The notes beneath the pieces were generated by a model. That model worked only from the letters and a program-made list of their open reading frames with translations. It did not search any database and was not told the DNA's origin. The translations under genes were made by a program, and so were the position numbers. From Nitrospirota bacterium (lineage in GTDB: Bacteria > Nitrospirota > UBA9217), in assembly GCA_035516175.1 (NCBI GenBank), contig DATJAO010000038.1, positions 28,427-92,426 on the forward strand: a stretch of DNA of 64,000 nt, written 5' to 3'. Each line of letters starts with the position of its first letter. Position 1 is the first letter of the stretch. Of this stretch, positions 5,876-44,601 are shown one piece after another.

Positions 5876-6245
5876 TTCGTTTGAAGATGCGCAGCTGTGC
5901 GCAGAGGCTGCGGACAACAAGAAAGCATTCGATATCATTATTCTCGACCTCCGCGAGCTCACCTACATAACCGATTATTTCGTTATCTGTTCGGGGAGCA
6001 ATACCACGCAGGTATCTGCCATCTCAGACTGGATCGGCCAGACTCTCGCGAAGACCGGAGCTCATCCTTCTCATATAGAGGGGCAGGCGGAATCGAGCTG
6101 GGTGCTCATGGACTACGGAGATTTCGTCGTACACATTTTCGATGAGCAGACCAGAGCATATTACGCCTTGGAGAAGCTCTGGGGAGATGCCGCCAAGGTG
6201 CCTTTTACATCCCGGCTCAAGGCCCTGCAGGGCACCACTCCATGA
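5868..6245 (+). CDS. rsfS: Ribosome silencing factor RsfS (Iojap family)
   Basis: 125 aa. Iojap-like core (FDIIILDLRELTYITDYFVICSG...HIFDEQTRAYYALEKLW). Conserved nadD-rsfS-rlmH order. Confidence 0.85.
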   Translation: MHNSFEDAQLCAEAADNKKAFDIIILDLRELTYITDYFVICSGSNTTQVSAISDWIGQTLAKTGAHPSHIEGQAESSWVLMDYGDFVVHIFDEQTRAYYALEKLWGDAAKVPFTSRLKALQGTTP

Positions 6246-6712
6246 AACTGCGCATCATCTGCATGGGGAAAACCAGGGAACGCTTTATCCAGGAAGGGAT
6301 TCAGAAATATCTGCGATACCTGAAGCCGTATGCAGGCATAGAAATGCTGGAGCTCAAAGAGGAGAAAATTAAGGACCTTAAAAATGCTCCGATCGTGAGG
6401 AAGAAGGAAGCCGAAAAGATATTCAGATCCCTCCCGGAAGGAACGTTCTTGGCGACATTGGATGAGCGGGGAGAAGAATTCACTTCTCATGAGTTTGCAG
6501 GATTCATGAACGCTATCATGGAGTCCGGCGTGAGGGAAGTAGTGTTCGTAATCGGTGGTGCAATGGGGCTGGATGAGCAGGTTACGGTGCGCGCGAACAA
6601 GGTGATTGCGATGTCCCGCTGGACACTCACCCATGAGATGGCGAGGCTTGTGCTGCTGGAGCAAATCTACCGGGCGTTTACAATTATCAAGGGTAAGACA
6701 TATCACCACTAA
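6242..6712 (+). CDS. rlmH: 23S rRNA (pseudouridine1915-N3)-methyltransferase, SPOUT family
   Basis: 156 aa. MKLRIICMGK start. C-terminal SPOUT region (VVFVIGGAMGLDEQV...MSRWTLTHEMARLVLLEQIYRA). 4-nt overlap with the rsfS stop. Confidence 0.85.
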   Translation: MKLRIICMGKTRERFIQEGIQKYLRYLKPYAGIEMLELKEEKIKDLKNAPIVRKKEAEKIFRSLPEGTFLATLDERGEEFTSHEFAGFMNAIMESGVREVVFVIGGAMGLDEQVTVRANKVIAMSRWTLTHEMARLVLLEQIYRAFTIIKGKTYHH

Positions 6713-6778
6713 GACTGGTCGGCACCCCGGTTATCCACCGCCCGATCGGGTTTATTTCTATATGAGAAAGGATCAGGG

Positions 6779-8086: not shown

Positions 8087-8238
8087 AAGCAGTAAATCCC
8101 ACGCATTATGCTTCTCTAACAGACAGGCTCCATAGGTAACCCAAGACCGTTTTGCACATTATTTACTCACTCGTATGAAGATGCTATGTGAGATTGTGAT
8201 CCCCGGATCTGAACTTTCTCATGGGATAAGGAGTTTGG

Positions 8239-9792: not shown

Positions 9793-10169
9793 AAGTCGGG
9801 GAGGATGTTAAAGCTATTCCTCTCCACAGAACAAGACCGCGCCAAAGAGGATTCAATCAGCCGTTACTCTTCCCTTACCGAGTCTTCGGAGCAAGATGAT
9901 ACATCCCTCCGGTCAGTACTCCTGCACGCGGTTCGGGCAATCTTGACAAGTAATATTGCTTTGGGTATAGTTTTCACATGTCTTCCCCGTACCATCCTCC
10001 CCTTTGCCCCCGTGACGGTTCTCAGAGGTGAATATTACCTTGACTTAAAAGCCCGTATATGAAATAGTTGTTAATATAAACACCTGTGTGGAGGAGGTAA
10101 ACATCGAAATATTTGAAAATATTATAACGTAAACTGATGTATACTATAACGATAAAGGGAGGTATAAAA

Positions 10170-11027
10170 ATGTCATTGAGAAGAGCAGGCTTTTTCGCAG
10201 TCGTCATAACATTTTCCGTTCTCATTACCGGCAGCGCCTACGCACAGCTTGTAGGCACGGTCAAGGATGTAATTGATCCCGTCGGTAGCACAGGCAAGGT
10301 GGACTGGACTACGGGAGTGATAACGGCGGTTGGCATCGGCGCACCTCCGGCCCAGCCAGCGAACCCGGCTCAGGCGCGCGCGATGGCCGAGAGGTCAGCG
10401 CAAGTCGTCGCGTACCGCAATCTGCTGGAAGCAGTGAAGGGCGTACGGGTGGATTCAACTACGACCGTGGAGAACTTCATCGTCACGAGCGATGTGATCA
10501 AAACACAGGTGAATGGTATCATTCAGGGCGCCACGGTAATGGATAAAAAATACATGTCTGACGGATCAGTGGAGGTCACCGTCGGGATGCAGCTTACCGG
10601 AGCACTGGCTGAATCGCTGCTCCCAAAAACTCCTCTGACACCTCCTGGAGGGTTGCCTGGCACATCTGTTCCGGGAACCACGGGACAACTTTATACTGGT
10701 CTCATCGTGGACGCGCGTGGTCTCGGCGTCAGGCCCGCTATGGCGCCCAAGATCCTGAATGAGGATGGCAAGGAGGTCTATGGCTCCGCATGGATCAACA
10801 GGGACTATGCCGTGCGGGAAGGCATGGTCGGCTATATGAAGGATCCCGTTGCTGCTCAGGCAAATCCTCGCGTGGCGGATAAGCCGCTTATGGTAAAGGC
10901 GCTTAAGGTTTCCGGCGATGGCAGGGTGGACACGGTCATCAGCAATGCCGATGCAGCCATGCTCCAGGGCGTATCGCAGAATCTGAGCATGCTCGAAAAA
11001 TGCAGGGTTATCATTCTGGTCGATTAG
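10170..11027 (+). CDS. Secreted two-domain protein: LPP20/FlgP-like N-domain plus conserved C-terminal domain of unknown function (paralog A)
   Basis: AAGGGAGG RBS. Sec signal peptide ending TGSAYA-Q. N-domain (GIGAPPAQ...AQARAMAERSAQVVAYRNLLEAVKGVRVDS...YMSDGSVEVTV) has the alternating Ala/Leu pattern of the LPP20/FlgP lipoprotein family. C-domain (GLIVDARGLGVRPAMAPKILNEDGKEVYG...CRVIILVD) is shared with ORF 13801..14835. Confidence 0.6.
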   Translation: MSLRRAGFFAVVITFSVLITGSAYAQLVGTVKDVIDPVGSTGKVDWTTGVITAVGIGAPPAQPANPAQARAMAERSAQVVAYRNLLEAVKGVRVDSTTTVENFIVTSDVIKTQVNGIIQGATVMDKKYMSDGSVEVTVGMQLTGALAESLLPKTPLTPPGGLPGTSVPGTTGQLYTGLIVDARGLGVRPAMAPKILNEDGKEVYGSAWINRDYAVREGMVGYMKDPVAAQANPRVADKPLMVKALKVSGDGRVDTVISNADAAMLQGVSQNLSMLEKCRVIILVD

Positions 11028-11095
11028 CAAGCCGTGCGATGGTAAGAGGATCAGCCCGTATGGCCGATCTCGAGAATAACGATGGGAGGTAGGCA

Positions 11096-12274
11096 ATGTT
11101 TACAGTGGTGAAACGCCTCATACTGGCAGTAACTGCCCTCGCGGCGCTGACTGCGGTTGCTGGTTGCGGGCCCAAGGCCGCACCGTCAATGTCGGTGATG
11201 GACACGCCCGAGTATCATTATAATCAGGGTCTGAAGGCATTGGACGCCGACAGACTGGATGACGCGATGCGAGAGTTCGACCGCGCAGTCGCCCTTGACC
11301 CGAAATCTCCGTTCGGTTATATCGGCAAAGGCCTCACCTTGGGCAAAAAAGGCGACTTTAAGCCGGCCTATGAGAACATGGAAAAAGCAAAGGATTATGA
11401 GAAAAAAGGCATCGAATCCCGCATAGGCATGATCAGGCTCTACGGAATGCAGATGGCCAAGGACCAGAAGCAGGTCAATGACCTCGTCAAATCGGCCGAG
11501 CACGAATTCAAGGCTGCCAATGAGAAGGAGCCGAACAACCCGCGACTGCACTACTACATGGGGATGTGCTACAAGATGGCGCTCGATTTCGACAAAGCCG
11601 CGACGATGTTCCGCGCTGTTCTCGACATGAATCGCGACTTCGTCGGAGAAGCCAATGCAGAGTGGGCCCTGATCCAGAAGATTCAGCGCGCAGCTCCCGG
11701 AACTGAGATCGGCAAGAAGATCGCCCTCATCGACAAAATCGACCGGGCCGATATCGCAGCACTCTTCGACCAGGAGATGAACCTGGAGAAACTCTTCACC
11801 AAGCGGGGAACGAAGACCTATGATACGAGTTTCAAGGCACCAACCGAGTCATCAACCCGCTTTTCGCCGGAGACGACGGTGAAGATGGAACCCGCCACGG
11901 ATATCGAAAACAACTGGCTCAAACCGAGCATCGAAACGGTGCTCAAGCTCCAGGTCCGGGGCCTCGAGGCCGGCCCGAACCACACCTTCGAGCCTGACAA
12001 GCTGATTACGAAGGCGGAGTTCGCACTCATGCTTGAAGACATTCTGATCAAGGTTTCCGGCGACGAGAAGCTCGCCACGAAGTACATTGGTACGACGTCG
12101 CTCTTTCCCGATGTGCGGAACGACCATTACGCGTTCAATGCCATCATGGTCGTGACCTCGCGAGGCTTTATCGAGGCCGATAAGGCGACGGGTGAATTCA
12201 AACCGAATGACCCCGTGTCGGGCGCTGATGCCCTGCTCGCGATACGGGAGTTTAAGGACCAGCTTAAGTTCTAA
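11096..12274 (+). CDS. TPR-repeat lipoprotein with SLH-like C-terminal domain
   Basis: Lipobox LTAVAGC after the signal peptide. TPR repeats in residues ~40-190. C-terminus (ITKAEFALMLEDIL...FPDVRNDHYAFNAIMVVTSRGFIEA) resembles an S-layer-homology motif. A strong intrinsic terminator follows. Confidence 0.6.
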   Translation: MFTVVKRLILAVTALAALTAVAGCGPKAAPSMSVMDTPEYHYNQGLKALDADRLDDAMREFDRAVALDPKSPFGYIGKGLTLGKKGDFKPAYENMEKAKDYEKKGIESRIGMIRLYGMQMAKDQKQVNDLVKSAEHEFKAANEKEPNNPRLHYYMGMCYKMALDFDKAATMFRAVLDMNRDFVGEANAEWALIQKIQRAAPGTEIGKKIALIDKIDRADIAALFDQEMNLEKLFTKRGTKTYDTSFKAPTESSTRFSPETTVKMEPATDIENNWLKPSIETVLKLQVRGLEAGPNHTFEPDKLITKAEFALMLEDILIKVSGDEKLATKYIGTTSLFPDVRNDHYAFNAIMVVTSRGFIEADKATGEFKPNDPVSGADALLAIREFKDQLKF

Positions 12275-12288
12275 TCGGATTTACCGAT

Positions 12289-12322
12289 GCCCGCCCCGCA
12301 TATATCGGGGCGGGCTTTTTTG
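12289..12322 (+). terminator. Rho-independent terminator (GC stem gcccgccccg/cggggcggg plus T6)
   Basis: Perfect 9-10 bp GC-rich inverted repeat with an 8-nt loop, followed by TTTTTT, 15 nt after the stop of the TPR lipoprotein gene. Confidence 0.85.
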
Positions 12323-12327
12323 ATGTC

Positions 12328-13719
12328 ATGATGAACAGACCTCTATTCGCAATGATAATTCTTGCCGGAATCTGTTTTCCAGGCATTGCCGGCGCCGAAC
12401 TGAAAGTACTCTCCGGCGAGCACACCGTTGTTTATGACATCGTCAATCCACGGGGAGTAGCCTTTATTCCCGATTATTCCAATGAATCATCCGAACAGAA
12501 AGTTATCAGTCAGGACGAGTTCAGCAAACGGGTGCAAGTGACCTCCAAGATGTACCCCATGAAGACCCGTGTTCCGTATCCTATTCAGGGTGGAGTTATG
12601 CCTCCGTCTGTAATGCAGTACCTTGTGCCGGAACGTGACCGGCAGTCCAATGACCCCGCAATCGTGCGCCTTGCACAGGACGTGACTCGTGGCAGCCGGT
12701 ACGCCCATGAAGCGGCCAACGCAATCCTATCATGGATTGCGGACAACCTGACATTCGATACGAGCATCTCAACGCCTTCAGATGCACTCTCGGCGCTGAG
12801 GTACAAAAAAGCCTATTGCGTCGGCTACTCCAATCTCGCTGTGGCAATGCTCAGAGCGGCAGGCATCCCCGCTCGCGTGGCCCACGGCTATCTCCCGCCG
12901 GGATATGATTGGGGTTTTTCAAAAGAATATTGGGGTGTTAAAGTCAATGACGGCGGCTTCCACGCCTATCTGGAGATATACTATCCCGATACTGGATGGG
13001 TATTTTCCGATGCCGAGCATTCCCATAATTTCGTAGATCCATTCCATATCGTTCTTCACCTCGACGGAATGGAAATGCCGGGAGCGTACAAAGGAGGCTA
13101 TCTGGAAGTTGACAAGGCCACATTCTACACCATCTTTCAGGAAGAGGATAAGTCCGTAATGGTCGATGAACTGCCTATACCGAAAGAGAAGCGGCTCGGC
13201 AGGCGTCTGGACGATGTTCAGCATTCGGCGCTCGTAACAGGCAGGGTAACCGATACTAATGGCGCCCCGGTGCAAAAAGGTTCTGCGGTCTTATGGAAAG
13301 ACGGCAGGGGTACGCCGTATCCATTCGCTGACGGCCATTATGCCGCGGCACTGACGATCCCGGGGAAATACCGGGTTGAACTAAAAGGCCCTGGTTTTGC
13401 AAAGTCGTCCCAAGAACTTCAGATAGAACAGGGGACAGTATACCGGCTGAATTTTACCCTGCATCCGGGCGGTAGCATTAAGGGAAAAGTTACAGATTCG
13501 GCGGGCAGGCCCATTGAGGATGGCGACGTTTTCTATCGTGACGGGAACACCAGTTACGGCGTTTCCATCGAAAAAGACGGCACATATAGAATAGAAGGTC
13601 TTGCCCCTGGTCAATACAAAGTATCTGTCATGACGGGCAATAGGGAGACATCGCGTACAGGCCAGGTGGAAGCAGGCAAAGAAACCTTGATGGATTTTAT
13701 TGTACCTATGGTAAAATAA
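12328..13719 (+). CDS. Secreted transglutaminase-like cysteine protease-fold protein with two C-terminal carboxypeptidase-regulatory-like (Ig/transthyretin-like) domains
   Basis: Signal peptide (AGICFPGIAGA). Transglutaminase-core motif YKKAYCVGYSNLAVAMLRAAGIPARVAHGY with downstream H and D (HAYLEIYYPDTGWVFSD). Two repeats of the GxVTDxxGxPxxxG...Y beta-sandwich pattern (GRVTDTNGAP..., GKVTDSAGRP...). Confidence 0.65.
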   Translation: MMNRPLFAMIILAGICFPGIAGAELKVLSGEHTVVYDIVNPRGVAFIPDYSNESSEQKVISQDEFSKRVQVTSKMYPMKTRVPYPIQGGVMPPSVMQYLVPERDRQSNDPAIVRLAQDVTRGSRYAHEAANAILSWIADNLTFDTSISTPSDALSALRYKKAYCVGYSNLAVAMLRAAGIPARVAHGYLPPGYDWGFSKEYWGVKVNDGGFHAYLEIYYPDTGWVFSDAEHSHNFVDPFHIVLHLDGMEMPGAYKGGYLEVDKATFYTIFQEEDKSVMVDELPIPKEKRLGRRLDDVQHSALVTGRVTDTNGAPVQKGSAVLWKDGRGTPYPFADGHYAAALTIPGKYRVELKGPGFAKSSQELQIEQGTVYRLNFTLHPGGSIKGKVTDSAGRPIEDGDVFYRDGNTSYGVSIEKDGTYRIEGLAPGQYKVSVMTGNRETSRTGQVEAGKETLMDFIVPMVK

Positions 13720-31942: not shown

Positions 31943-32605
31943 ATGGAATATAGAGTAATTGCTTTGATGGTGCTGATTGTAACCGTGTCATGTTCTTCCG
32001 TCTGCCATGCCTGGAACGATAGGTGTTATCAGTATGCGGAACAAAAAAAATATGATGACGCTATCAAGGAATGTACGAAGCAGATTAATGCGAATGCGGG
32101 TGTAATAAGCAATGTCGAGTACTCTTACATGAACCGTGGGATTGCGTATGAGGCTAAGGGCCTACTCGACCAGGCCATCGCCGATTACAGTAAGGCCATT
32201 GAAATAAAGCCTCGATATGACGGGGCTTACGTTAACCGTGGGAATGCCTATAAGGCTAAGGGCCTGCTTGTCCGGGCCATCGCGGATTACAACAAGGCTA
32301 TTGAATTAAATATAAAAAATGACAAGGCGTACTATAACCGTGGGAGTGCTTATAAGGCTAAGGGTCTGTTTGAACAGGCCATAGATGATTTCAACAAAAC
32401 GATAGAGCTAAATCCAAATAAAAATTTTACATACTATAATATTGCTTGTCTGTACTCACTTAGAAAAAAAGCGGAAGAATCCTGTTTATGGCTGCAAAAA
32501 GCCATCCATGCCGGATTTAACGATTGGAAACTTATGAAGAATGACGCAGACCTTTCTAATATTCGTGATACTGCATGCTATAGGGAAATTATTGACGGGA
32601 AATGA
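31943..32605 (+). CDS. Secreted TPR-repeat protein
   Basis: Signal peptide. Four near-identical TPR units (NRGxAYxAKGLxxxAIxDYxKAIEL). C-terminal ankyrin/SEL1-like tail. Confidence 0.7.
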   Translation: MEYRVIALMVLIVTVSCSSVCHAWNDRCYQYAEQKKYDDAIKECTKQINANAGVISNVEYSYMNRGIAYEAKGLLDQAIADYSKAIEIKPRYDGAYVNRGNAYKAKGLLVRAIADYNKAIELNIKNDKAYYNRGSAYKAKGLFEQAIDDFNKTIELNPNKNFTYYNIACLYSLRKKAEESCLWLQKAIHAGFNDWKLMKNDADLSNIRDTACYREIIDGK

Positions 32606-33592: not shown

Positions 33593-34585
33593 ATGACTTC
33601 TCAACGGAGACATGATGACCATCACAATCATGGTCATGCCGATGATCATGAACACGGTCATGAGCATGCAAACGGCCTGAGGCAACAGTCGAGGGGAGGG
33701 AAGAGAGACCTCCTGATTGCGCTCTCGATAACGCTCCTGATGATGATTGTCGAGGCGATCGGCGGACTGCTCTCGAATAGCCTTGCGCTCATTTCTGACG
33801 CGGGGCATATGCTGACTGACAATCTCGCTCTCCTGCTCTCGTTCTTTGCCATGAAGTTCGCCACATTGCCGGCAACCGAGAAAAGGACATTCGGCTTTTA
33901 CCGGCTCGAGATTCTGGCGGCACTCATCAACGGTATCATTCTTGTCGTCATTTCTCTGTATATCATTTATCAGTCATATCTCCGGATGATACATCCACAG
34001 CGCGTCGAGGGGATGCTGATGCTTATTGTGGCCGTTATTGGCCTCGTCGCGAACATCAGTGGTGCCGTCGTTCTCATGAAGCACAGCCATTCCAATCTCA
34101 ATATCCGCGGCGCCTATCTCCATATCGTTGGAGATGCTTTTTCCTCCATAGGGGTGGTCGTTGGCGGCATCATCATCCTGTACACGGGCTGGTACTTGAT
34201 TGACCCGATCCTCAGCATACTGATTTCGTTCGTGATCATCTACGGCGCGTGGGCGCTCGTCAAGGAATCGGTAAGTATCCTTCTTGAATCCGTGCCCTCC
34301 CATATCGATATCGAGACCGTGGCAACAGCGATCAGCCAGATCAGAGGCGTGCGCGAAGCTTACCACATCCATGTTTGGACGATCACGTCCGGTGTTCATG
34401 CCATGAGCGCCCATGTCCTCATAGACGATCAACTCGTCAGCCGGAGCAGGGACCTGATAAACGATATCAAATCACTCCTTGCCGAAAAGTTCAAGATACT
34501 GCACAGTACAATTCAGCTCGAATGCGAGCGGTGCGATATGAATCCCATATGCAGCCTTCCGAACAATGTTCAAATGAAGCGATGA
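33593..34585 (+). CDS. czcD: Cation diffusion facilitator (CDF) family divalent-metal exporter with His-rich N-terminus
   Basis: N-terminal HDDHHNHGHADDHEHGHEH. Six TM helices. CDF signature (SDAGHMLTD). C-terminal cytoplasmic domain. Confidence 0.85.
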   Translation: MTSQRRHDDHHNHGHADDHEHGHEHANGLRQQSRGGKRDLLIALSITLLMMIVEAIGGLLSNSLALISDAGHMLTDNLALLLSFFAMKFATLPATEKRTFGFYRLEILAALINGIILVVISLYIIYQSYLRMIHPQRVEGMLMLIVAVIGLVANISGAVVLMKHSHSNLNIRGAYLHIVGDAFSSIGVVVGGIIILYTGWYLIDPILSILISFVIIYGAWALVKESVSILLESVPSHIDIETVATAISQIRGVREAYHIHVWTITSGVHAMSAHVLIDDQLVSRSRDLINDIKSLLAEKFKILHSTIQLECERCDMNPICSLPNNVQMKR

Positions 34586-34682
34586 TCTATGGTCCACGAC
34601 CATACATTACGCATGTCCCTTGACATTCCAGCGTAATTTGATTAAACTACCACAAAATTTTGTTACTTCACCTGCGGAGGCG

Positions 34683-35681
34683 ATGGGGCGGTCACTCCAA
34701 AAAAGGGTTCTGGTCACCGGCGGCACGGGTTTCGTGGGGAGTCACCTGGTGGAAAGTCTTTTCCAGAGAGGCTATACCATTACCTGCCTTGTCAGAGACC
34801 CTGACAGGCTCCGGTGGCTCACGGGAGTGGATGTCCATCTGGTAAAAGGCGACTGCTCTCTTCCCGAATCGCTGATCCCCGCAGTGCAAAACGTTTCCGT
34901 CGTTATCCACGCCGCGGGACTCACGAAGGCCAAACGAGCCCGCGATTACTATCAAGTGAATCACATCGGGACCAGGAACATCCTTGAAGCATGTGTTCGA
35001 CATAATCCCGGTATTGAAAAGTTCATCCTGATATCCAGCCTTGCGGCTGCGGGCCCGAGCACAGATGGCAGGCCAGTCACGGATGCCGATGCACCACGGC
35101 CGGTATCGGATTATGGCAAGAGCAAGCTCTTCGGAGAGAACGAGGCGCTTGGGAACAAGGATAGAATTCCCGTTGTCATACTACGGCCATCAGCCGTGTA
35201 CGGACCCCGGGACCGTGACATGTTTGAGCTCTTCCGCTGGGCCGTGCGGGGGCTGACCGTGGAGATCGCAGGGGGCGACAGGTATATCAGTCCGTGTTAT
35301 GTGCAAGACCTTGTAACGGCAATAATTCTCGCCGTCGAAAAAAAGACCGTGAGCGGGAGCATATATTTCGTTGCTGAGAACAAAGCATACTCCTGGTCCG
35401 AGTTTAGGCAGGTGCTGCTCACGACAGGAGGTATAAAGGCCCGGAACATAAAAATTCCTTATCCCGTGGCGTACCTCATCGGGCTTTTTTCAGAATTAGG
35501 CAGCCTGTTCACGTCCCGACCAACCGTGACGAGCAGGCAAAAAATAGATGAGGCTGTTCAGAGGTATTGGACATGTGACCTCGGGAAAATCGAAAAAGAA
35601 CTCGGTTTCAGACCTGAATTTTCTCTTCAGAAGGGCCTGGAAGTAACCTGGCAATGGTACCGGAACAACGGTTGGTTGTAA
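34683..35681 (+). CDS. NAD(P)-dependent epimerase/dehydratase-family reductase (candidate 3-ketosphinganine reductase, CerR-like)
   Basis: Rossmann motif VLVTGGTGFVGSHL. Extended-SDR catalytic YxxxK (YGKSK). Immediately upstream of an Spt-like gene. Confidence 0.6.
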   Translation: MGRSLQKRVLVTGGTGFVGSHLVESLFQRGYTITCLVRDPDRLRWLTGVDVHLVKGDCSLPESLIPAVQNVSVVIHAAGLTKAKRARDYYQVNHIGTRNILEACVRHNPGIEKFILISSLAAAGPSTDGRPVTDADAPRPVSDYGKSKLFGENEALGNKDRIPVVILRPSAVYGPRDRDMFELFRWAVRGLTVEIAGGDRYISPCYVQDLVTAIILAVEKKTVSGSIYFVAENKAYSWSEFRQVLLTTGGIKARNIKIPYPVAYLIGLFSELGSLFTSRPTVTSRQKIDEAVQRYWTCDLGKIEKELGFRPEFSLQKGLEVTWQWYRNNGWL

Positions 35682-35720
35682 TTATGCAAAGCTGTAAACA
35701 TTTGAACGCTGGAGGCAAAC

Positions 35721-36899
35721 TTGGATCTTTTTGAGAAATGCAGAAAGTATACGGCCGCAAAAGAAGTGATGGCTGCTGGATTTTATCCTTACTTCCGTGT
35801 TGTGGAATCCGAACAGAACCCAGAAGTGATCGTGCAGGGCAAAAAAATGATCATGCTCGGATCGAACAACTATCTCGGTTTGACCAGCCACCCAAAGGTC
35901 AAAGAGGCCGCAATCGAAGCCATCAAGAAGTACGGCAGCGGCTGCGCGGGTTCCCGGTTTCTTAATGGCACGCTCGACATTCACGTGAAGCTCGAGGATA
36001 AACTGGCAAAATTCTTCAGGAAGGATGCCGCCCTTACGTTTTCTACAGGATATCAGACAAACCTCGGCATCATCTCGTCCATCGCAGGTAAGGACGACAT
36101 GGTGGTGATCGATAAGCTGGACCACGCCAGCATTATCGACGCCTGCAGGCTGTCGTTTGCGGAGGTCAAGAAGTTCAAACACAACGACATGGGCAGCCTT
36201 GAGTTCGTCCTCAAGGGGTGCGGGGATAGGTGCAAGCTCGTCGTTGTTGACGGCGTATACAGCATGGAAGGGGACATTGCTCAGCTTCCGAGCATTGTGA
36301 AGCTTTGCAAAAAGTACGGAGCCAGGCTCATGGTGGATGACGCGCACGGTGTTGGCGTACTAGGTAAGACAGGACGCGGCACGGCAGAGCACTTCGGACT
36401 TGAGAAAGAAGTGGACATCATTATGGGAACCTACAGCAAGTCCATGGCGTCCATCGGCGGATTCGTGACCGCGAACGAGGACGTAATCCATTATATCAAG
36501 CATACCTCCCGGCCGCTCATCTTTTCGGCGAGTCCGCCGCCAGCCTCAGTGGCGTCTGTCATAGCCGCCCTCGACGTCATAGACCAGGAACCGGAGCGCA
36601 GGGAGCGGCTCTGGCACAACACCGATAAGATGATGAAGGCCTTCAAACAGATGGGCTTCGATACTGGTACCACCGAGACACCCATTATCCCGCTGCTCAT
36701 GGGTGAGATGGAACGGGCATTCACGATGTGGAAGATCCTGAGCGATGAGGGCGTGTTCGTAAACCCGGTTGCCCCCCCGGCAACACCGCCCGGACGCTGC
36801 CTCATCCGGACGAGCTACATGGCGACCCATACCGATGAAATGCTCGACAGAGTACTGGTGATTCTTGAGAAAGCGGGAAAGAAGCTGGGGATCATTTAG
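35721..36899 (+). CDS. Alpha-oxoamine synthase family PLP enzyme (candidate serine palmitoyltransferase, Spt-like)
   Basis: PLP-lysine motif [14 protein letters not shown] follows the SPT pattern (GTFSKSxxxxGGF) rather than BioF (GTLSKA) or KBL (GTLGKA). 392 aa. TGGAGG RBS before a TTG start. Confidence 0.65.
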
Positions 36900-37045
36900 A
36901 GCAATAGCATGTCTCATGAGCAGCACATCATTCTTGGACGCACGAAGGTCACGGGAAAATAGGTGTGGGGTTTTATTCAGTGCTCTCTGTGTCTTTGTGA
37001 TTGTCCAGATTCCTTTCAGTCGGCCCGTATTTGATAAAGGTCTCC

Positions 37046-38158
37046 ATGCAAATTGAACAAGTCTCAGATAAGAATGGGCTGGACCAGTTTATCCTCTTTC
37101 CCTGGAAGGTATATCAGGGAAACCCGAACTGGGTGCCTCCGCTCATCAGTGAAATGAAGTTCATCCTGGGAGACAAGAACCCATTCTTTCATCACGCTGA
37201 AGCAGCCTATTTTCTTGCCAGAAGGGACGGGATTGTCGTCGGGCGGATCGCTGCCATCGTGGACCGCAATCACATCAACGTTCATAAGGAACAGGCTGGT
37301 TTCTTCGGATTTTTCGAATGCCTCAGTGATGTCGCAATTGCTCAAGGCCTTTTAGACGCAGCGGCCGCATGGCTCAGAGAACGCGATATCGAGATCATGC
37401 GGGGCCCCATAAACCCGTCTGTGAACGATGAGTGCGGCTTCCTGCTTGATGGTTTCGACTCGCCACCCATGATCATGATGACTTATACCCCGCCGTATTA
37501 TCTCGATTTCATGGAGAGCTGCGGCCTGACCAAGTCCAAGGACCTGTTCGCATACATTTCCGTCATCAAGGACGTTTCTGCAGGCGGCAGGCTTGAAAAA
37601 CTTGCCTCGGGAGTGAGAGCGCGGGTCCCCGGACTTACCGTGCGCCCTGCAAACATGAAACAGTTCCAGAGGGAACTGGAGACGGTGAAGGACATTTATA
37701 ATTCCGCGTGGAGCCACAACTGGGGGTACGTTCCTATGACTGATGAAGAGATAGAGGCCATGGCAAAACGTCTCAAGCCGCTCATCGTGCCCGAACTGCT
37801 CATCATGGCAGAGGTGAACGGAAGCCCCGCCGCGTTCTTTATGGCCGTGCCGGACTACAATCACGCCTTGAGCAAGCTTAACGGCAGGATGGGGCCCGTA
37901 GGGATCATAAAGTTTTTGTGGTATTCACGGAAGATCAGAGACATCCGCGTCCTGACTCTGGGAGTAAAAGAGGAATACCGGAAAAGGGGAATCGAGGGCC
38001 TGCTCTATCTCGAGTCCTTCAAGGCCGCCATGAAAAAAGGCTACGAACGCGCCGAGATGTCGTGGATCCTTGAGGACAACGTCCTGATGCAGCGGGGCTG
38101 CGAACTCATGGGCGGGAAGCTTTACAAAAAATATCGAATCTACGAGATGAGGCTGTAA
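37046..38158 (+). CDS. GNAT/FemAB-like N-acyltransferase (candidate bacterial ceramide synthase, bCerS-like)
   Basis: ~370 aa. C-terminal GNAT-like region (LTLGVKEEYRKRGIEGLLYLESFKAAMKKGYERAEMSWILEDN). Third gene of the SDR / alpha-oxoamine synthase / acyltransferase trio. Confidence 0.5.
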   Translation: MQIEQVSDKNGLDQFILFPWKVYQGNPNWVPPLISEMKFILGDKNPFFHHAEAAYFLARRDGIVVGRIAAIVDRNHINVHKEQAGFFGFFECLSDVAIAQGLLDAAAAWLRERDIEIMRGPINPSVNDECGFLLDGFDSPPMIMMTYTPPYYLDFMESCGLTKSKDLFAYISVIKDVSAGGRLEKLASGVRARVPGLTVRPANMKQFQRELETVKDIYNSAWSHNWGYVPMTDEEIEAMAKRLKPLIVPELLIMAEVNGSPAAFFMAVPDYNHALSKLNGRMGPVGIIKFLWYSRKIRDIRVLTLGVKEEYRKRGIEGLLYLESFKAAMKKGYERAEMSWILEDNVLMQRGCELMGGKLYKKYRIYEMRL

Positions 38159-38260: not shown

Positions 38261-38845
38261 ATGAAGGACATCGGTCGCAAGCTTTACCATCTCTTAGGCG
38301 GTATCGGTCTTCTATCACTGTACTACATCCTCGGCAGGGAGCATGCGCTCATGTTCTATGCCGTGTTCTTCCTCATCGCCCTGGGGCTTGATCTTACACG
38401 GCTGAAGATTCCTGCGGTCAACCAATTTATCCTCACTCGGTTCAGAAGCTTCATCCGAAAAAACGAAGAGCATAAACTGACCGGCACGGTGCCGTATATT
38501 CTCGGCATTGGACTGTCACTGTACGCCTATTCTCCGGAGGTCGCGACCGCAGCGGTCTGTTTTCTCGCCTTTGGAGATGTTGCCGCAACCACGACGGGTG
38601 AACGTTACGGTAAAACCAAGATAGGTGACAAGAGCTTGGAAGGTTCAGCGGCTTTCATCATCGCGTCACTTGTGTCGGGATTGTTTTTGCAAATCATAGG
38701 GATATATCTTGCTACGGGGGTGATGATCCTTGGAGCTTTCGTTGCCGCAGGTGTAGAGATCATGCCGCTTCCGGTTAACGACAATCTGTTGATCCCGATT
38801 GTGGCGGGCGGGGTCATGGAATTAACCATGAGATTGATCCGATGA
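38261..38845 (+). CDS. CTP-dependent polyprenol/lipid kinase-like membrane protein (dolichol/phytol kinase - CdsA superfamily)
   Basis: Polytopic 194 aa membrane protein. FGDVAATTTGERYGKTKIG matches the FGDxxAxxxGxxxG motif of the CTP-transferase/polyprenol-kinase family. Confidence 0.5.
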   Translation: MKDIGRKLYHLLGGIGLLSLYYILGREHALMFYAVFFLIALGLDLTRLKIPAVNQFILTRFRSFIRKNEEHKLTGTVPYILGIGLSLYAYSPEVATAAVCFLAFGDVAATTTGERYGKTKIGDKSLEGSAAFIIASLVSGLFLQIIGIYLATGVMILGAFVAAGVEIMPLPVNDNLLIPIVAGGVMELTMRLIR

Positions 38846-39706
38846 TGGGGAGAGCGCTTTATACATCCGGGGTGCAATATATATCGTGATAGCGTTGAGC
38901 AGAAAACCTGCGATCACGTCTATGACGTAGTGATATCGCAGGTATACGGTCGAAATAACCAGCGCCGAGACAACAGGGAGCAATATCCAGAATAACACCT
39001 TCTCCCGGCTTTTCCAGGCGTAATAGAGTGTCACAAGGGCTACGGCAGTGTGTCCGCTCGGAAAGGCATCGGTTTTGGTGTTTTCAAGCCGATTGAGGGC
39101 ATTCTGGATCGCGAGGGCCAGAGGGCTGGCCTGAAAGCCTGTTGTCTGCAGATGATCAAGCGTAAAGCGGGGACCGATGGCAGGAAAGAGCATGTACCCG
39201 ATATAGGAGAGATAAAAGCAGAGGACGATGCCAAAAACAGCCTCATCGAAATTCTTCCATTTCTTTTTTGCGGCAAGAACGATCCCGAGGGAGATGGGGA
39301 TAAAATAATAGCTGATATAGGCAAGCTGGAGGACATTTGTCAGCAACGGATGGATGAACCGCTCCATCCATACTGTTGGATTAACGCCAAACAGCCTATG
39401 GTCAATGTGTATCAAGATGTCATCGTGATACCGCGGCCATATCAGGGGTATCAGGTCGCCGAGGCTGTCAAAGATGATGGGAATAATGAGCACCGGAAGA
39501 AAGGCGTGAACAAAGAGAGCAAGCCTCCCTCTTTGAGATCCAGTGGCGTACAAGGCCACCGAAACAATCACGAGTGCGATCAGGGCATACCTGGCAATGA
39601 GCCAGCCCCACGAGGGAAGGGAGCGGTTGAATACGACCGCGACCACTGAAAGCAGTGCGATCAAGGAAAGGGATAGAAGGTCGATCGGTTTGAGCGGGCT
39701 GCGCAT
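38822..39706 (-). CDS. PAP2-family (type 2 phosphatidic acid phosphatase-like) integral membrane phosphatase
   Basis: Polytopic. PAP2 motifs KxxxxxxRP-like region and DAFPSGHTAVA, then SRxxxxxHxxxD-like YLRYHYVIDV. Confidence 0.75.
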   Translation of the reverse strand: MRSPLKPIDLLSLSLIALLSVVAVVFNRSLPSWGWLIARYALIALVIVSVALYATGSQRGRLALFVHAFLPVLIIPIIFDSLGDLIPLIWPRYHDDILIHIDHRLFGVNPTVWMERFIHPLLTNVLQLAYISYYFIPISLGIVLAAKKKWKNFDEAVFGIVLCFYLSYIGYMLFPAIGPRFTLDHLQTTGFQASPLALAIQNALNRLENTKTDAFPSGHTAVALVTLYYAWKSREKVLFWILLPVVSALVISTVYLRYHYVIDVIAGFLLNAITIYIAPRMYKALSPSSDQSHG

Positions 39707-39768: not shown

Positions 39769-41070
39769 ATGGGTGAAGGTATGCACCGGTTCATCGTGAT
39801 GGCAGTCCTGTCCATACTTGTTATTGCCCCATCCCCAATCCATGCCGAGACGCCGAAATTCAGTCTGCATGACTGTATTGACATCGCGCTCAAGAATCAG
39901 CCTGCGATCAGGGCCGCGCAGGAGAATGTGAATGCGGGGCTGGGCCGCGAGACGCAGGCGGTATCTCCCTTCTTACCTCAGGTCAATGCGAGCACAGGAT
40001 ATTCCGAGAACTACGCTCTCGGAGGAGCTTTCGGGAACAGCATAACAAAGAGCTATACCACGACACTCTCCGTGAACCAGATTCTCTATGACTTTGGAAA
40101 GACCGGAAACGCGCTCGATGCGGCTCGATGGGACACCCGCTCATACCAACGGAACATGGATCGTACGATTCAGGACGTCGTTCTGAACGTGAAGCAGGCA
40201 TATTACGCATTGCTTGCAGCCAAAAAGCTGGTTCTTGTGGCGCAGAAGACGATTGAGCAGACCGAAAGTCACCTTAAGCAGGCGATGGCATTCTATCGGG
40301 CTGGATCGAAGCCACGATATGACGTAACGCGCGCCGAGGTGGAAGTGAACAATGCCAAGCTGGGAATGATCAACGCGAAGAACGGCGTGCGGATACGCAC
40401 TATCTCCCTGAACAATGCTATAGGTCTCGAACCAGGAAAGGAGACCGAGATCGACGACACGCTTCCCCCCGCGTCCGCAGTGCCGACCCTCGAAATGGCC
40501 CAGGAGGAGACGCTCAGAAACAGGCCCGAAATGCTGAAGGCAGAGGCCGATATTGAGGCAGCCAAGTACCGGGTCCAGGCGGAAGCGTCTAATTATTACC
40601 CGACGGTCTCGGCGAACGGTGCGTATAACTGGGCGACAGGGACCGCGGAGATGGGGCCGTTCAAGGGAGATCTGCAAAACAGCTGGAATGCAGGAGTGAT
40701 GTTGACGGTACCTCTATTCCAGGGCGGTCTTACGCGCGGGAAGGTAAGCGAAGCGCGGGCAAACATGCTCGCCGCGGAGGCGCAGCGGGACGCCACAAGG
40801 CAATCCATCCTTCTTGAGGTTAACCAGTCCTATGCAGACATGGAAAGTGCGAAGATACGCATTGACGTGATGGAAAGCTCGCTACAAAAGGCCCGGGAGA
40901 ACCTCGAGATCGCACAAGGCAGGTATGAGGCTGGTTTCGGCCCCTATATCGAAGTTACGGATGCTCAGCTCTCTGCGGTCAATGCCGAGACAGATTATAT
41001 TCAAGCGAAATATGACTACTATCTCGCCATAGCGAGGCTTCTGAAGGCAATGGGTCGCGCGGAGCCATAG
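39769..41070 (+). CDS. tolC: TolC-family outer membrane efflux protein
   Basis: Signal peptide. Two tandem OEP repeats with coiled-coil-rich sequence. 433 aa. First gene of the efflux operon. Confidence 0.85.
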   Translation: MGEGMHRFIVMAVLSILVIAPSPIHAETPKFSLHDCIDIALKNQPAIRAAQENVNAGLGRETQAVSPFLPQVNASTGYSENYALGGAFGNSITKSYTTTLSVNQILYDFGKTGNALDAARWDTRSYQRNMDRTIQDVVLNVKQAYYALLAAKKLVLVAQKTIEQTESHLKQAMAFYRAGSKPRYDVTRAEVEVNNAKLGMINAKNGVRIRTISLNNAIGLEPGKETEIDDTLPPASAVPTLEMAQEETLRNRPEMLKAEADIEAAKYRVQAEASNYYPTVSANGAYNWATGTAEMGPFKGDLQNSWNAGVMLTVPLFQGGLTRGKVSEARANMLAAEAQRDATRQSILLEVNQSYADMESAKIRIDVMESSLQKARENLEIAQGRYEAGFGPYIEVTDAQLSAVNAETDYIQAKYDYYLAIARLLKAMGRAEP

Positions 41071-41091
41071 CGACATGCGAAGGGAGGAAAG

Positions 41092-41541
41092 ATGCCGACA
41101 AGGGAGGTAATATTCACCGTGAAGCTGCCGATCAGGAGCGTATGGTCTTTCATGATCGATCGGAAAGAGGTTGGCTGTCTTTTTCCCGGATGCAAAGGTG
41201 TTGAGATACTCAACGATCTGGATTCCATCTGGAAGATCAAGATGTCCCTCGGACCCTTCAGCAAGACCATCGAAATGCATGCGCACACTAACGAGATGAT
41301 CGAGCATAAGCGGATAGCGTGGACAGCGACGCATGAGCACCTTATCACATCGGGGACCATAACCTTTCGCAAAGTCTCCGAAGATGAGACAGAGATCACC
41401 TATCATCTCGAAGGGCACGTGACCGGTCACTTTACTTTTCTTCAGGATATTGTCGTTGCCGAGAAGCTGGGTGAAGTGACCCGCGGATTCATGAAGGCCA
41501 TCAAAGAGCGTCTCGAGTGGACCGCTTCTAACGAACCATAA
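41092..41541 (+). CDS. SRPBCC-superfamily (CoxG/polyketide-cyclase-like) ligand-binding protein
   Basis: 149 aa. START/Bet v1-like pattern. No signal peptide. Embedded between tolC and the membrane fusion gene. Confidence 0.5.
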   Translation: MPTREVIFTVKLPIRSVWSFMIDRKEVGCLFPGCKGVEILNDLDSIWKIKMSLGPFSKTIEMHAHTNEMIEHKRIAWTATHEHLITSGTITFRKVSEDETEITYHLEGHVTGHFTFLQDIVVAEKLGEVTRGFMKAIKERLEWTASNEP

Positions 41542-41550
41542 GGACAGGGA

Positions 41551-42645
41551 ATGGCACTCATCAAAAGCAAGATAATCTTATGGATCGTCATCGTAGCAGC
41601 CGCAGTCGTCCTCGTCGTATTTCTTACCGGGAAAAAACCGGTCGTTGTAAGAGCACAAGCCGTCAAGCCTGATGATCTCCGCGTCGTCGTGAACGCCACA
41701 ACCACCTCCACCGTAAAATCCGAGACCGAAGTGACCCTTTCCGCCCAGCGGACGGGACGGGTCATCGTTCTCCCGGTACAAGAAGGGGACATCGTAAAGA
41801 AAGGCGACCTGATCGCCAGGCTCGACCTGACCGAGGAGAAGGTGCAGACCGAAAGCACCCTTGCCCAGAGCAAAGCCACGTACGAGGAATCACAGAAGAA
41901 CCTTAACAGAATAAAGGACCTGTTCGACAAGGGTATGATCGCCCAGCAGGACCTCGACGCCGCCAGCCGGACTTATGAAGTGGCGAGATCGCAGTATGAT
42001 GCGGCCCGGGACGATCTCACGGTAAAGAAGAACTATTCCGTCATTAATGCGCCCTTTGACGGCGTGGTATCCAAGAAATATGCAGAGGTCGGAGAGCTTC
42101 TGTTGCCGGGAAAGCAGATCGTCACCATCGTGAACCCTGACAAGATCTATGTACTTGCCACCATAGACGAAGTGGACGTGGGCAGGCTCCGCCTGAATGA
42201 GCCGGTGACGATCACGGTGGACGCTTTCCCAGGCGAAAAATTCGACGGCACGATCAAGCGCATATCTCCCATCGTGAGCGGCGGCAAGCTCGAGACCCGC
42301 ACTGCCGACGTGTGGATCTACTTTTCAAAAAAAGACAAAAGAATAAAACCGGGGATGTCGGCCGATGTGGAGATACTCGTCATGACTCTTCACGACGTTC
42401 TGTCGGTTCCGTCTCAGGCGGTTATAGAGCGCGAAGGTAAAAAACAGGTATACGAGGTGATTGGAAAGAACATCGGACCCGGGGCAACGGCTGTTGTAAA
42501 GCTCAAACCTGTCGAGATAGGCGAGACCAACTGGAGCTTTACGCAGATAACAAAGGGTCTCGCTGCGGGAGAATTCGTCGTCACCACTCCGGAAGCCGAA
42601 GGGTTGAAGGATGGGGCAAAGGTGAGGATAGAAGGGGAGACGTAA
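41551..42645 (+). CDS. macA: Periplasmic membrane fusion protein (HlyD/MacA family)
   Basis: N-terminal TM anchor, coiled-coil hairpin, lipoyl/beta-barrel segments (VKKGDLIARLD; FDGVVSKKYAEVGE). Confidence 0.85.
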   Translation: MALIKSKIILWIVIVAAAVVLVVFLTGKKPVVVRAQAVKPDDLRVVVNATTTSTVKSETEVTLSAQRTGRVIVLPVQEGDIVKKGDLIARLDLTEEKVQTESTLAQSKATYEESQKNLNRIKDLFDKGMIAQQDLDAASRTYEVARSQYDAARDDLTVKKNYSVINAPFDGVVSKKYAEVGELLLPGKQIVTIVNPDKIYVLATIDEVDVGRLRLNEPVTITVDAFPGEKFDGTIKRISPIVSGGKLETRTADVWIYFSKKDKRIKPGMSADVEILVMTLHDVLSVPSQAVIEREGKKQVYEVIGKNIGPGATAVVKLKPVEIGETNWSFTQITKGLAAGEFVVTTPEAEGLKDGAKVRIEGET

Positions 42646-42718
42646 AAAAGTTCATAGCATCGTGGTATTCTGTATTTGCATTAGGTATCCTGTATCATGC
42701 ATCGTCCACCGTTTCATC

Positions 42719-43396
42719 ATGATCGAACTTTCCAAAATAACCAAGATCTACCGCATGGGCGAAATGGACATCACCGTGCTCTCCGGTATTTTCCTGAAAG
42801 TACAGAGCGGAGAGCTCATCGCCATTATGGGGCCTTCCGGCTCGGGGAAGTCGACTCTCATGAACATTATTGGCTGCCTGGACCGTCCGACAAGCGGTGC
42901 GTACCATTTCGAGGACCGTGAGATCAGCACCCTGTCGGACGATGAACTTGCCGCCGTCAGAAATGGCAAGATCGGCTTCGTGTTCCAGACCTTCAATCTC
43001 CTCCCGCGTTTTTCAGCGCTCAAGAACGTTGAAGTGCCGCTCATCTACGGCGGCATGCCTGCCCGTCTGCGAAGCGAGCGCGCAATTCCGCTGCTTCAAA
43101 AAGTGGGGCTCGCTGACCGCATGACGCACAAGCCGACAGAACTCTCTGGGGGCCAGCAGCAGCGCGTGGCAATCGCCCGGGCGCTCGTGAACAACCCGCC
43201 GCTCCTGCTCGCGGATGAACCTACCGGCAACCTCGACAGCCGCTCAGGCTCGGAGATTCTTGATATCCTGACCGGTCTCAACCGGCAGGGCGTCACGATC
43301 ATAATTGTGACCCACGATAAGGACGTTGCAGCGAGGTGCAAGAGAGTCATCAATCTGAAAGATGGTCAGATCATCAATGATCAGGTGATGGCATGA
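42719..43396 (+). CDS. macB: ABC transporter ATP-binding protein (MacB/LolD type)
   Basis: Walker A GPSGSGKST, signature LSGGQQQRVAIARAL, Walker B LLLADEPTGNLD. 4-nt overlap with the downstream permease. Confidence 0.9.
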   Translation: MIELSKITKIYRMGEMDITVLSGIFLKVQSGELIAIMGPSGSGKSTLMNIIGCLDRPTSGAYHFEDREISTLSDDELAAVRNGKIGFVFQTFNLLPRFSALKNVEVPLIYGGMPARLRSERAIPLLQKVGLADRMTHKPTELSGGQQQRVAIARALVNNPPLLLADEPTGNLDSRSGSEILDILTGLNRQGVTIIIVTHDKDVAARCKRVINLKDGQIINDQVMA

Positions 43397-44601
43397 ACTT
43401 TATTGAAACATTCAAGGTCTCCATCGAAGCCATTTTGTCGAACAAGGTCCGCTCCGGGCTTACCATGCTCGGCGTGATCATCGGTGTGATGGCCGTTATA
43501 CTCCTCGTATCCATCGGAGAAGGTGCGCGGGTTTATATCACTAAAGAGCTCATGGGTCTCGGCACTAACCTTCTCATCATAACTCCCGGGAAGACGACGA
43601 CGCGCGGTGGTTTCCATCCGCCGTCCGCGGGCACGGTGCGCAAACTCTCCTATGATGATTCTCTCGCCCTCAGACGGCGCGCCTGGCTCTTGACCGATGC
43701 GGTCCCGATCGTGTTCGGCACGGGCAAGATCAAATACCAAAATCTCGGACGCGATACCATAGTGATCGGCACGACGCCCGAGTTCCAGCGGGTGAGGAAC
43801 CTCTTCGTGGACATCGGGAGCTTTGTCTCGCAGGGAGACGTTGATTCCAAGAGCAAAATCGTGGTGCTTGGCACCACAGTAAAGGAAGAGTTGTTTGGCG
43901 ACCAGAGCTCTCTCGGAAAAGTGGTGATGGTCTCCGATGCGCGTTATCGCGTCGTGGGCGTCATGCAGAAGAAAGGGATGAGCCTGGGATGGGATATCGA
44001 CGATGTTGTTTTTATACCTGTTACGAGCGGCCAGGAGTTATTCGATACCGACGGCCTGTTCGAAATCCTTGCCTCAACCCCGCGGGCCGAGGACGTTAAC
44101 CCTGCCATTGCCCAGATCAAGGACATCCTCATCAAACGTCACGCGCACAAGGAAGATTTTACCATCCAGACGCAGGGCGCCATGCTCTCTACCATGAGCA
44201 CCATTCTCAACGTGCTGACGGCGGTGCTCGGCGGTATTGCGGGCATCTCACTGCTCGTCGGCGGTATCGGTATCATGAACATCATGCTCGTCTCTGTACG
44301 GGAGCGCACGCGAGAGATCGGCATCAGGAAGGCATTAGGCGCGAGGAACCGGGACATCATGGCCCAGTTCATGATCGAGGCCACGACCTTGAGCGGCGCC
44401 GGCGGCATTATCGGCATTATCACCGGTGTCGGACTGGCGCTCATTATTCCGGTCTTCGTGGACGTGCTGCCGACGAGCGTATCGCTGTGGTCCATCCTCA
44501 TGGCCTTCTCGTTCTCTGCGGCTGTAGGCGTGTTCTTCGGCGTGTACCCGGCGCGCAAGGCGGCGCATCAGGATCCGATCCAGGCGCTCCGGTACGAGTA
44601 G
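43393..44601 (+). CDS. ABC transporter permease (MacB/FtsX type: 4 TM with large periplasmic loop)
   Basis: MacB_PCD-like periplasmic domain between TM1 and TM2. C-terminal FtsX module (GIMNIMLVSVRERTREIGIRKALGA). Confidence 0.85.
   Translation: MNFIETFKVSIEAILSNKVRSGLTMLGVIIGVMAVILLVSIGEGARVYITKELMGLGTNLLIITPGKTTTRGGFHPPSAGTVRKLSYDDSLALRRRAWLLTDAVPIVFGTGKIKYQNLGRDTIVIGTTPEFQRVRNLFVDIGSFVSQGDVDSKSKIVVLGTTVKEELFGDQSSLGKVVMVSDARYRVVGVMQKKGMSLGWDIDDVVFIPVTSGQELFDTDGLFEILASTPRAEDVNPAIAQIKDILIKRHAHKEDFTIQTQGAMLSTMSTILNVLTAVLGGIAGISLLVGGIGIMNIMLVSVRERTREIGIRKALGARNRDIMAQFMIEATTLSGAGGIIGIITGVGLALIIPVFVDVLPTSVSLWSILMAFSFSAAVGVFFGVYPARKAAHQDPIQALRYE

Follow-up and report, generated by a model that had tools for sequence, protein, structure and literature searches.

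A candidate operon for sphingolipid (dihydroceramide) biosynthesis in a Nitrospirota chromosome

Genes of the locus

Bacterial sphingolipids were long thought to be rare, but from the genes for Spt (serine palmitoyltransferase), bCerS (the N-acyltransferase) and CerR (the reductase) they are now predicted in dozens of phyla, in most cases with no proof by experiment. Here we analyze a stretch of 64,000 nucleotides from a Nitrospirota bacterium (assembly GCA_035516175.1, contig DATJAO010000038.1, positions 28,427 to 92,426; hereafter the window), in which three co-directional open reading frames on the + strand encode a short-chain dehydrogenase/reductase (SDR), an alpha-oxoamine synthase and a protein of the GNAT acyltransferase superfamily. 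Our results make it probable that this chromosomal locus is an operon for the synthesis of sphingolipids (dihydroceramide). If true, the Nitrospirota, an environmentally important and largely uncultured phylum, would join the candidate producers, and this bears on sphingolipid biomarkers in sediments and anoxic waters. We found no published link between Nitrospirota and sphingolipids in the searchable literature.

The first gene (34683..35681, + strand) encodes a CerR-like extended SDR of 332 aa, a candidate NAD(P)H-dependent C3-keto reductase. Its start is more likely ATG 34683 than TTG 34620, the start assigned by mechanical calling of open reading frames and the point where the original prediction, made from the sequence without database searches, had begun the span of the trio (34620-38158), because TTG 34620 is the first hexamer of a promoter-like site and a GGAGG precedes ATG 34683 (both within 34676..34685). 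This sigma-70-like site in front of the operon (34620..34648, + strand; TTGACA, a 17 nt spacer and TAAACT) gives 10/12 matches in a consensus scan, but such sites are not enriched in the region and we keep it as a promoter candidate only. The second gene (35721..36899, + strand) encodes an Spt-like alpha-oxoamine synthase of 392 aa and starts with TTG at 35721, with a GGAGG 7 nt upstream. The third (37046..38158, + strand) encodes a predicted acyl-CoA N-acyltransferase of the bCerS family with a tandem GNAT fold, for which ATG 37046 is the more likely start; this gives 370 aa, as in almost all of the 120 homologs that match it best. The spt-bcerS spacer (36900..37045) is 146 nt long, against 138 nt in a close relative (locus L001) and 16-25 nt in other Nitrospirota relatives; it has no sequence conservation in relatives and no structure (z = +1.2), and Rfam has no match anywhere in the window.

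The span first proposed holds three real genes, but the cluster reaches beyond it. Downstream lie a gene for a polytopic membrane protein of 194 aa that resembles dolichol kinases (COG0170; 38261..38845, + strand) and, converging with it over a 24-nt overlap, one for an Aur1-like membrane enzyme of the PAP2 family of 294 aa (38822..39706, - strand), a candidate ceramide phospho-head-group transferase. Together they make a compact set of five genes: reductase, synthase, acyltransferase, kinase-like protein and Aur1-like transferase.

Families of the three proteins

The synthase has the class I/II aminotransferase fold (fold-type I) of pyridoxal phosphate (PLP) enzymes (Pfam Aminotran_1_2, 210.8 bits). 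Its PLP-lysine motif lies at residues 236-249, K240 being the PLP lysine. The original prediction had called this motif Spt-like and not of the BioF or KBL kind, and alignment with three references of each sort bears this out: it aligns with GTFSKSLASLGGFV (S. multivorum), GTFSKSVGTVGGFV (S. parapaucimobilis) and GTFSKSLASIGGFA (E. coli B-type), all Spt, and is unlike ATLSKAWAGIGGYA (T. thermophilus BioF/Kbl), GTLGKALGGASGGY (E. coli Kbl) and VTFGKGFGVSGAAV (E. coli BioF). The catalytic His/Asp/His residues are kept as well, with DHASIID, VDDAHG and GTYSK(240)S aligning with the Spt references. The best NCBIfam model, by 145 bits, is that of the Bacteroidota Spt (SerpalmtaseCFB, NF047600; 577.5 bits), followed by those of the beta-proteobacterial Spt (432), the BioF/Kbl subfamily TIGR01825 (428), Kbl (406) and BioF (395). 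Among PDB sequences the best match is the Spt of Sphingobacterium multivorum (3A2B; 432 bits, 50% identity), ahead of Thermus BioF/Kbl (331), Sphingomonas Spt (~320), Kbl (275), cysteate-C-fatty acyltransferase (256), BioF (at most 238), HemA (at most 188) and CqsA (147 bits).

A neighbor-joining tree was built from 58 GNAT-linked synthases, three Spt references, E. coli BioF and Kbl and Thermus BioF/Kbl, without HemA and CqsA. The window synthase falls in a clade with the S. multivorum Spt, the proteobacterial Spts are sister to it and BioF/Kbl lie outside, so that the grouping with Spt expected from the original prediction is recovered; the split of Spt and the linked synthases from BioF/Kbl has a bootstrap of 92/100. 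The S. multivorum enzyme (3A2B/8GUH; NF047600), which nests in this clade, is the closest characterised relative. Its Bacteroidota hosts belong to a different phylum, and the three genes are reported to be unclustered there, whereas they form one operon here (PMC11334938). The Spts of the proteobacterial clusters (Sphingomonas, E. coli) are 38-41% identical to the window enzyme. Two Spt subgroups have been described, one of Rhodobacteria and one of Bacteroidetes and delta-proteobacteria (PMC9386255). Our comparisons place the window synthase in the Bacteroidota/delta-proteobacterial subgroup and not in the Rhodobacteria subgroup of Caulobacter, so that the parallel with the Caulobacter-type pathway drawn in the original prediction holds for the three families but not for the type of Spt. 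The predicted substrates of the synthase are L-serine and a long-chain acyl thioester.

One could still argue that this is an ordinary BioF or Kbl sitting by chance between an unrelated sugar epimerase and an acetyltransferase, as the TIGR01825, Kbl and BioF models do still score 395-428 bits and the SDR also matches sugar-nucleotide epimerase models in NCBIfam. We consider this extremely improbable. The tree puts the synthase in the Spt clade, and the trio is conserved across phyla and is even found fused (see below). Neither are there neighbors of the kind that would betray biotin or threonine metabolism: no bio or tdh gene occurs in the window, and the 80 related loci described below give only sporadic matches at superfamily level, with no such pattern.

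The GNAT protein is less readily recognized. Pfam Acetyltransf_1 matches it with only 26 bits, and it has no informative match in Pfam, NCBIfam or PDB sequences; the silence of NCBIfam is uninformative because YghO and the Sphingomonas ortholog are also unmatched. When plasmid and chromid records were searched in translation, homologs covering the full length turned up at 34-41% identity, among them E. coli YghO and an N-acetyltransferase of Sphingomonas parapaucimobilis. YghO is 36% identical over 100% of the query, the S. parapaucimobilis cluster gene aligns end to end (34% identity, E 4e-72), and the residues that are invariant across the family are common to the window protein and these orthologs. 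The E. coli B-type and Sphingomonas orthologs were our references for both bCerS and CerR, with no Caulobacter or Bacteroides sequences in the comparison. In PMC9386255 the N-acyltransferase gene is given as CC_1154 and yghO (ECD_02850), and the reductase gene as CC_1164 and ECD_02852; CC_1154 (cerS) and CC_1164 (cerR) are required for dihydroceramide formation (PMC11324152).

The genomic context of the two references is also that of sphingolipid synthesis. In Sphingomonas, the GNAT gene occupies the same cluster position as the CC_1154-type gene, together with genes for an NAD(P)H-binding protein, an acyl carrier protein (ACP), LptF/LptG paralogs and an aminotransferase-fold enzyme whose 833 bits exceed the equivalog cut-off for the alpha-proteobacterial Spt. 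The neighbors of yghO in E. coli encode a fatty acyl-AMP ligase, an epimerase-family SDR, an ACP, LptF/LptG paralogs and an Spt that passes the beta-proteobacterial equivalog cut-off with 600 bits. Such a full Caulobacter-type set is present in some E. coli strains; in PN43 (NZ_MG591698.1, locus coordinates 5343..13122) it lies between glcC and yghS/yghT, and its presence in E. coli B was already known (PMC9386255).

The AlphaFold (AF2) model of the GNAT protein (predicted local confidence, pLDDT, 72.8) finds tandem-GNAT structures in Foldseek at probability 1.00, namely a glucosamine N-acetyltransferase, MshD and FemX, and the description of a GNAT/FemAB-like protein of ~370 aa given in the original prediction proves apt. 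The C-terminal lobe carries an RKRGIEG motif in which R312, G315 and E317 are invariant. With 8908 clusters at 50% identity (E <= 1e-3) the family is very large, and the 120 best-scoring homologs are 76-94% identical to the window protein, those that are named being Nitrospirota. Homology, structure model and linkage (below) identify the protein as a full-length member of the bCerS family, the kinship on which the original prediction had staked itself. We predict from this membership that it N-acylates a sphingoid base or 3-ketosphinganine.

The SDR is an extended SDR of the NAD-epimerase/3-beta-HSD type (Pfam Epimerase, 128.5 bits; 3Beta_HSD also matches). Its alignment with the two CC_1164 orthologs, of E. 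coli and Sphingomonas, spans the whole protein (27-28% identity, E 1e-39 and 7e-29), its GxxGxxG (GGTGFVG) and YxxxK (YGKSK) motifs align with theirs, and a C-terminal WYRxNG end is common to all. With the E. coli ortholog as phmmer query, the Sphingomonas ortholog scores 135.7 bits, other bCerS-linked SDRs up to 120 and the window SDR 108.6, and the best protein in the whole PDB reaches only 52.3 bits. HpnA is the top NCBIfam model for the window, E. coli and Sphingomonas proteins alike, with the same ranking. CerR has been published as resembling NDUFA9, a resemblance taken from the literature and not a strict definition; NDUFA9 chains are among the top PDB matches of the E. coli ortholog, at ~50 bits. 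We also considered the 3-ketosphinganine reductase of Bacteroides, BT_0972, which performs the same kind of C3-keto reduction as we propose here, and rejected it as a model: BT_0972 is a Tsc10/FVT1-like SDR of ~31 kDa (PMC9278070) and thus a classical SDR, unlike the window protein, which at 332 aa is an epimerase/3-beta-HSD-type extended SDR like CerR. The window SDR is probably a functional counterpart of CerR and a member of its subfamily. Of the three assignments this is the weakest, and falls short of proven orthology.

Conserved linkage, fusions and downstream genes

To place these genes in a wider context we scanned genomes, one per species, and obtained 80 loci with a GNAT homolog 44-75% identical to ours. 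The alignment used was a narrow one (a 36-sequence set that included proteobacterial members was too diverse), and no Caulobacter, Bacteroides or Myxococcus locus is in the set. Still, the loci come from Nitrospirota, Zixibacteria, Latescibacterota, Acidobacteriota, Ignavibacteria, Calditrichia, Bacteroidota, Gemmatimonadota, Planctomycetota, Verrucomicrobia, Eisenbacteria and others. A synthase homolog lies within 3 kb of the bCerS homolog in 62/80 loci (39/47 among loci whose flanks reach 3.5 kb or more on both sides), an SDR homolog of at least 150 bits within 5 kb in 50/80 (35/47), and both are present in 48/80 (34/47). This recurrence of the trio in 48 of the 80 genomes is more than chance. 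The synthase is usually directly upstream of the GNAT gene on the same strand (50/83 loci, including L001), with a gap of 5-252 nt between the two matches. A PAP2 homolog is found within 5 kb in 20/80 loci (17/47).

Linkage goes as far as gene fusion. Two metagenomic protein clusters, P0159 (780 aa) and P0173 (777 aa), join an Spt-like N-terminal domain, whose best NCBIfam model is SerpalmtaseCFB (470 and 539 bits), to a bCerS-like C-terminal domain. The fused form appears in 0/80 of the genome loci. Cluster P0159 also has members of 473 aa and 317 aa from a single contig, so that a frameshifted or split form exists as well.

Cultured actinobacteria have the set too. In Nonomuraea gerenzanensis the order is synthase, GNAT, SDR and PAP2, and on plasmid 1 of Rubrobacter radiotolerans (locus coordinates 6704..12296) synthase, GNAT and SDR are followed by an LtaS-family protein. 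This LtaS/sulfatase-family membrane protein stands in the place of PAP2 and may attach a head group in its stead; immediately upstream of the cluster there is a type I-D CRISPR-Cas locus. Other recurrent neighbors look like ordinary synteny and we do not count them as pathway genes: the DUF4835, HhH (helix-hairpin-helix) and small cytochrome genes of Ignavibacteria-type loci, and the SpoU methylase and isocitrate/isopropylmalate dehydrogenase genes of several others.

The linkage also bears on the idea that the trio makes something other than a membrane lipid, such as an acylated amino-ketone serving as a CqsA-type signal or a secondary metabolite. All three enzyme families (alpha-oxoamine synthases, SDRs and GNATs) are versatile, neither this SDR nor this GNAT is named by any NCBIfam model, and the 47 loci flanked by 3.5 kb or more on both sides include 8 in which the bCerS homolog has no synthase nearby. 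However, CqsA scores 147 bits with the synthase against 432 for Spt, the GNAT protein is homologous over its full length to genes that genetic work has shown to be needed for making ceramide, and a family as large and as highly conserved as this one suits a core membrane function. We consider a product of this other kind very improbable.

The Aur1-like gene points to what may happen to the ceramide. Its product matches Pfam PAP2_3 (85 bits) and PAP2_C, and the NCBIfam model for phosphoinositol dihydroceramide synthase gives a weak but full-length match (33.9 bits, E 2.2e-8). Phosphoinositol dihydroceramide synthase activity has been assigned to the Aur1 homolog BT_1522 (PMC9246714). In Foldseek, the structure model has two inositol-phosphorylceramide synthases on top, yeast Aur1 being the best. 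The SGHT and HYxxD motifs are invariant in the family, and the PAP2 catalytic His/His/Asp are set in an Aur1-like full-length architecture, although identity to yeast Aur1 (PDB 9IVC) and to the phosphoinositol dihydroceramide synthase BT_1522 of Bacteroides thetaiotaomicron is only 17-19%. PAP2 genes are linked to bCerS in Nitrospirota, delta-proteobacterial, Acidobacteriota, Verrucomicrobia, Gemmatimonadota, Eisenbacteria and Latescibacterota loci. Fold similarity and this linkage make the protein a candidate ceramide phospho-head-group transferase and suggest a phosphosphingolipid as end product. The head group could equally be phosphoethanolamine or phosphoglycerol; no inositol-phosphate synthase or phosphatidylinositol synthase gene was found among the window open reading frames scanned.

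The 194-aa protein encoded between bcerS and the PAP2 gene has no Pfam or NCBIfam match. Most of its homologs are named 'dolichol kinase' by JGI (the Joint Genome Institute), and it has the conserved motifs FGD..A...G...G......KSLEG and DNL.IP, which we take to resemble those of the CTP-dependent dolichol/phytol/diacylglycerol kinase family. Outside Nitrospirota, just three loci have its gene linked to bCerS. In L001 its start overlaps the bcerS stop by 4 nt.

Proposed pathway, alternatives and genomic surroundings

If the locus works as we propose, Spt would condense L-serine with a long-chain acyl-CoA to give 3-ketosphinganine, the tandem-GNAT bCerS would add a second, amide-linked acyl chain from acyl-CoA, and the CerR-like SDR would reduce the C3 ketone with NAD(P)H, yielding dihydroceramide. 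The Aur1-like PAP2 enzyme would then most likely move a phospho-alcohol head group from a glycerophospholipid to the C1 hydroxyl of the ceramide, a step that would yield a phosphosphingolipid and free diacylglycerol. The dolichol-kinase-like protein may re-phosphorylate this diacylglycerol, or it may have another role as a lipid kinase. The order of acylation and reduction is disputed between two laboratories (PMC11087976; PMC11324152). The natural Spt-bCerS fusions bear on this dispute and favor acylation directly after condensation, without proving it.

Several results weigh against reading the locus as a sphingolipid operon, or against parts of this scheme. The 577.5 bits of the synthase are below the equivalog cut-off of NF047600, which is 640; this lowers certainty but does not exclude membership, because the model was built for another phylum. 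The amino-acid specificity of an alpha-oxoamine synthase cannot be read from its sequence or overall similarity, that of the window enzyme included. For the SDR, the CerR-like nature claimed in the original prediction is supported by the full-length alignment with CC_1164 orthologs and by linkage in 50/80 loci, and is weakened by a small margin when the window protein is the query (106.5 bits for the E. coli ortholog versus 92.5 for NSDHL, the best PDB match) and by NDUFA9 not being among its PDB matches at E <= 1e-10. For the kinase-like protein, Pfam CTP_transf_1 matched 1/18 family members (E 0.055), and hhalign with E. coli CdsA found the right motif with only 2.9% probability, so that the assignment goes back to the names given by the source and the motif, and statistical support is lacking. 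Finally, the literature searched holds no biochemical or lipidomic support for sphingolipids in Nitrospirota.

The first two of these points leave some room for the same enzymology acting on another amino acid (alanine, glycine or cysteate), in which case the product would be a 1-deoxyceramide or a capnine-type sulfonolipid analogue. The score of a solved cysteate-C-fatty acyltransferase is still 256 bits; moreover, 1-deoxy and sulfono ceramides are abundant in the Black Sea, where they are attributed to anaerobic bacteria (PMC11334938), and the same enzymes produce 1-deoxyceramides when fed alanine (supplement of PMC11334938). Yet the synthase resembles an Spt characterised by both biochemistry and structure (432 bits, 50% identity) much more strongly than it does the cysteate enzyme. 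Also, the Aur1-like transferase next door would need a C1 hydroxyl, which, as we infer, only a serine-derived base supplies. We therefore hold a different amino acid to be improbable, if less so than the other alternatives, and retain L-serine and dihydroceramide as the preferred reading.

With Caulobacter crescentus the locus shares the same three families: Spt (CC_1162/CCNA_01220), bCerS (CC_1154/CCNA_01212) and CerR (CC_1164/CCNA_01222). The accessory genes are different. In Rhodobacteria, spt is preceded by a gene for a dedicated ACP (AcpR), and the enzymes prefer acyl-AcpR made by AasR (PMC9386255); clusters orthologous to that of Caulobacter are known in Sphingomonas and E. coli B (yghO region). 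No AcpR, AasR or LptF2/LptG2 was found in the window or in the 80 related loci, with E. coli and Sphingomonas queries for AcpR and E. coli queries for AasR and LptF2/LptG2. The absence of the ACP and the acyl-ACP synthetase had been noted in the original prediction, and our survey extends it from the window to the related loci. It is to be expected, because the Spt is of the Bacteroidota/delta-proteobacterial subgroup, apart from the ACP-dependent type. Gene order differs as well: in Rhodobacteria, cerS is said to be always in a different operon from spt (PMC11324152), whereas spt and bcerS are adjacent and co-directional in the window. As for the head group, there is an Aur1-like PAP2 gene here versus the CPG genes in Caulobacter.

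The core of our proposal extends published surveys and comes as no surprise. The trio and its frequent clustering have already been published, and a metagenomic survey reported Spt-like genes with co-located bCerS and CerR in 40 phyla (PMC11334938). We see the Aur1-like and kinase-like extension and the Spt-bCerS fusions as two modest leads; the Aur1-like neighbor may lead to the enzyme by which bacteria other than Bacteroides put phospho-head groups on ceramide. It is tempting to go further and see in the Nitrospirota version a self-contained phosphosphingolipid module, in which ceramide synthesis would be genetically coupled to an Aur1-like transferase and to a protein resembling CTP-dependent lipid kinases; this would be a bacterial route for adding the head group and recycling diacylglycerol, distinct both from the Caulobacter CPG genes and from the Bacteroides inositol cluster, with the fusions as independent evidence that 3-ketosphinganine is acylated before reduction. 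We offer this larger picture tentatively and regard it, taken as a whole, as rather unlikely.

The surroundings of the cluster are those of a chromosome, with housekeeping genes such as lpxK, proB, feoB, a che operon, recJ, relA/spoT and rtcB, and the presence of LpxK shows an outer membrane containing lipid A. Every gene examined has its best homologs in Nitrospirota, and one window protein is 100% identical to a protein of a Nitrospirota metagenome-assembled genome. After the cluster (39769..44601) come genes for TolC-like, COXG/SRPBCC-like and HlyD-like proteins and for a MacB-type ABC (ATP-binding cassette) system, with ATPase and FtsX permease. We do not attribute the TolC/HlyD/MacB-type efflux genes to the pathway, as they are syntenic only in close relatives (L001) and do not lie beside bCerS in other phyla. 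Upstream, a tetratricopeptide repeat (TPR) protein and a cation diffusion facilitator (CDF) transporter (31943..32605 and 33593..34585) match magnetosome models far below cut-off, the former MamA (60.6 bits for a cut-off of 200) and the latter MamM/MamB; these matches probably reflect generic family similarity and not magnetosome genes.

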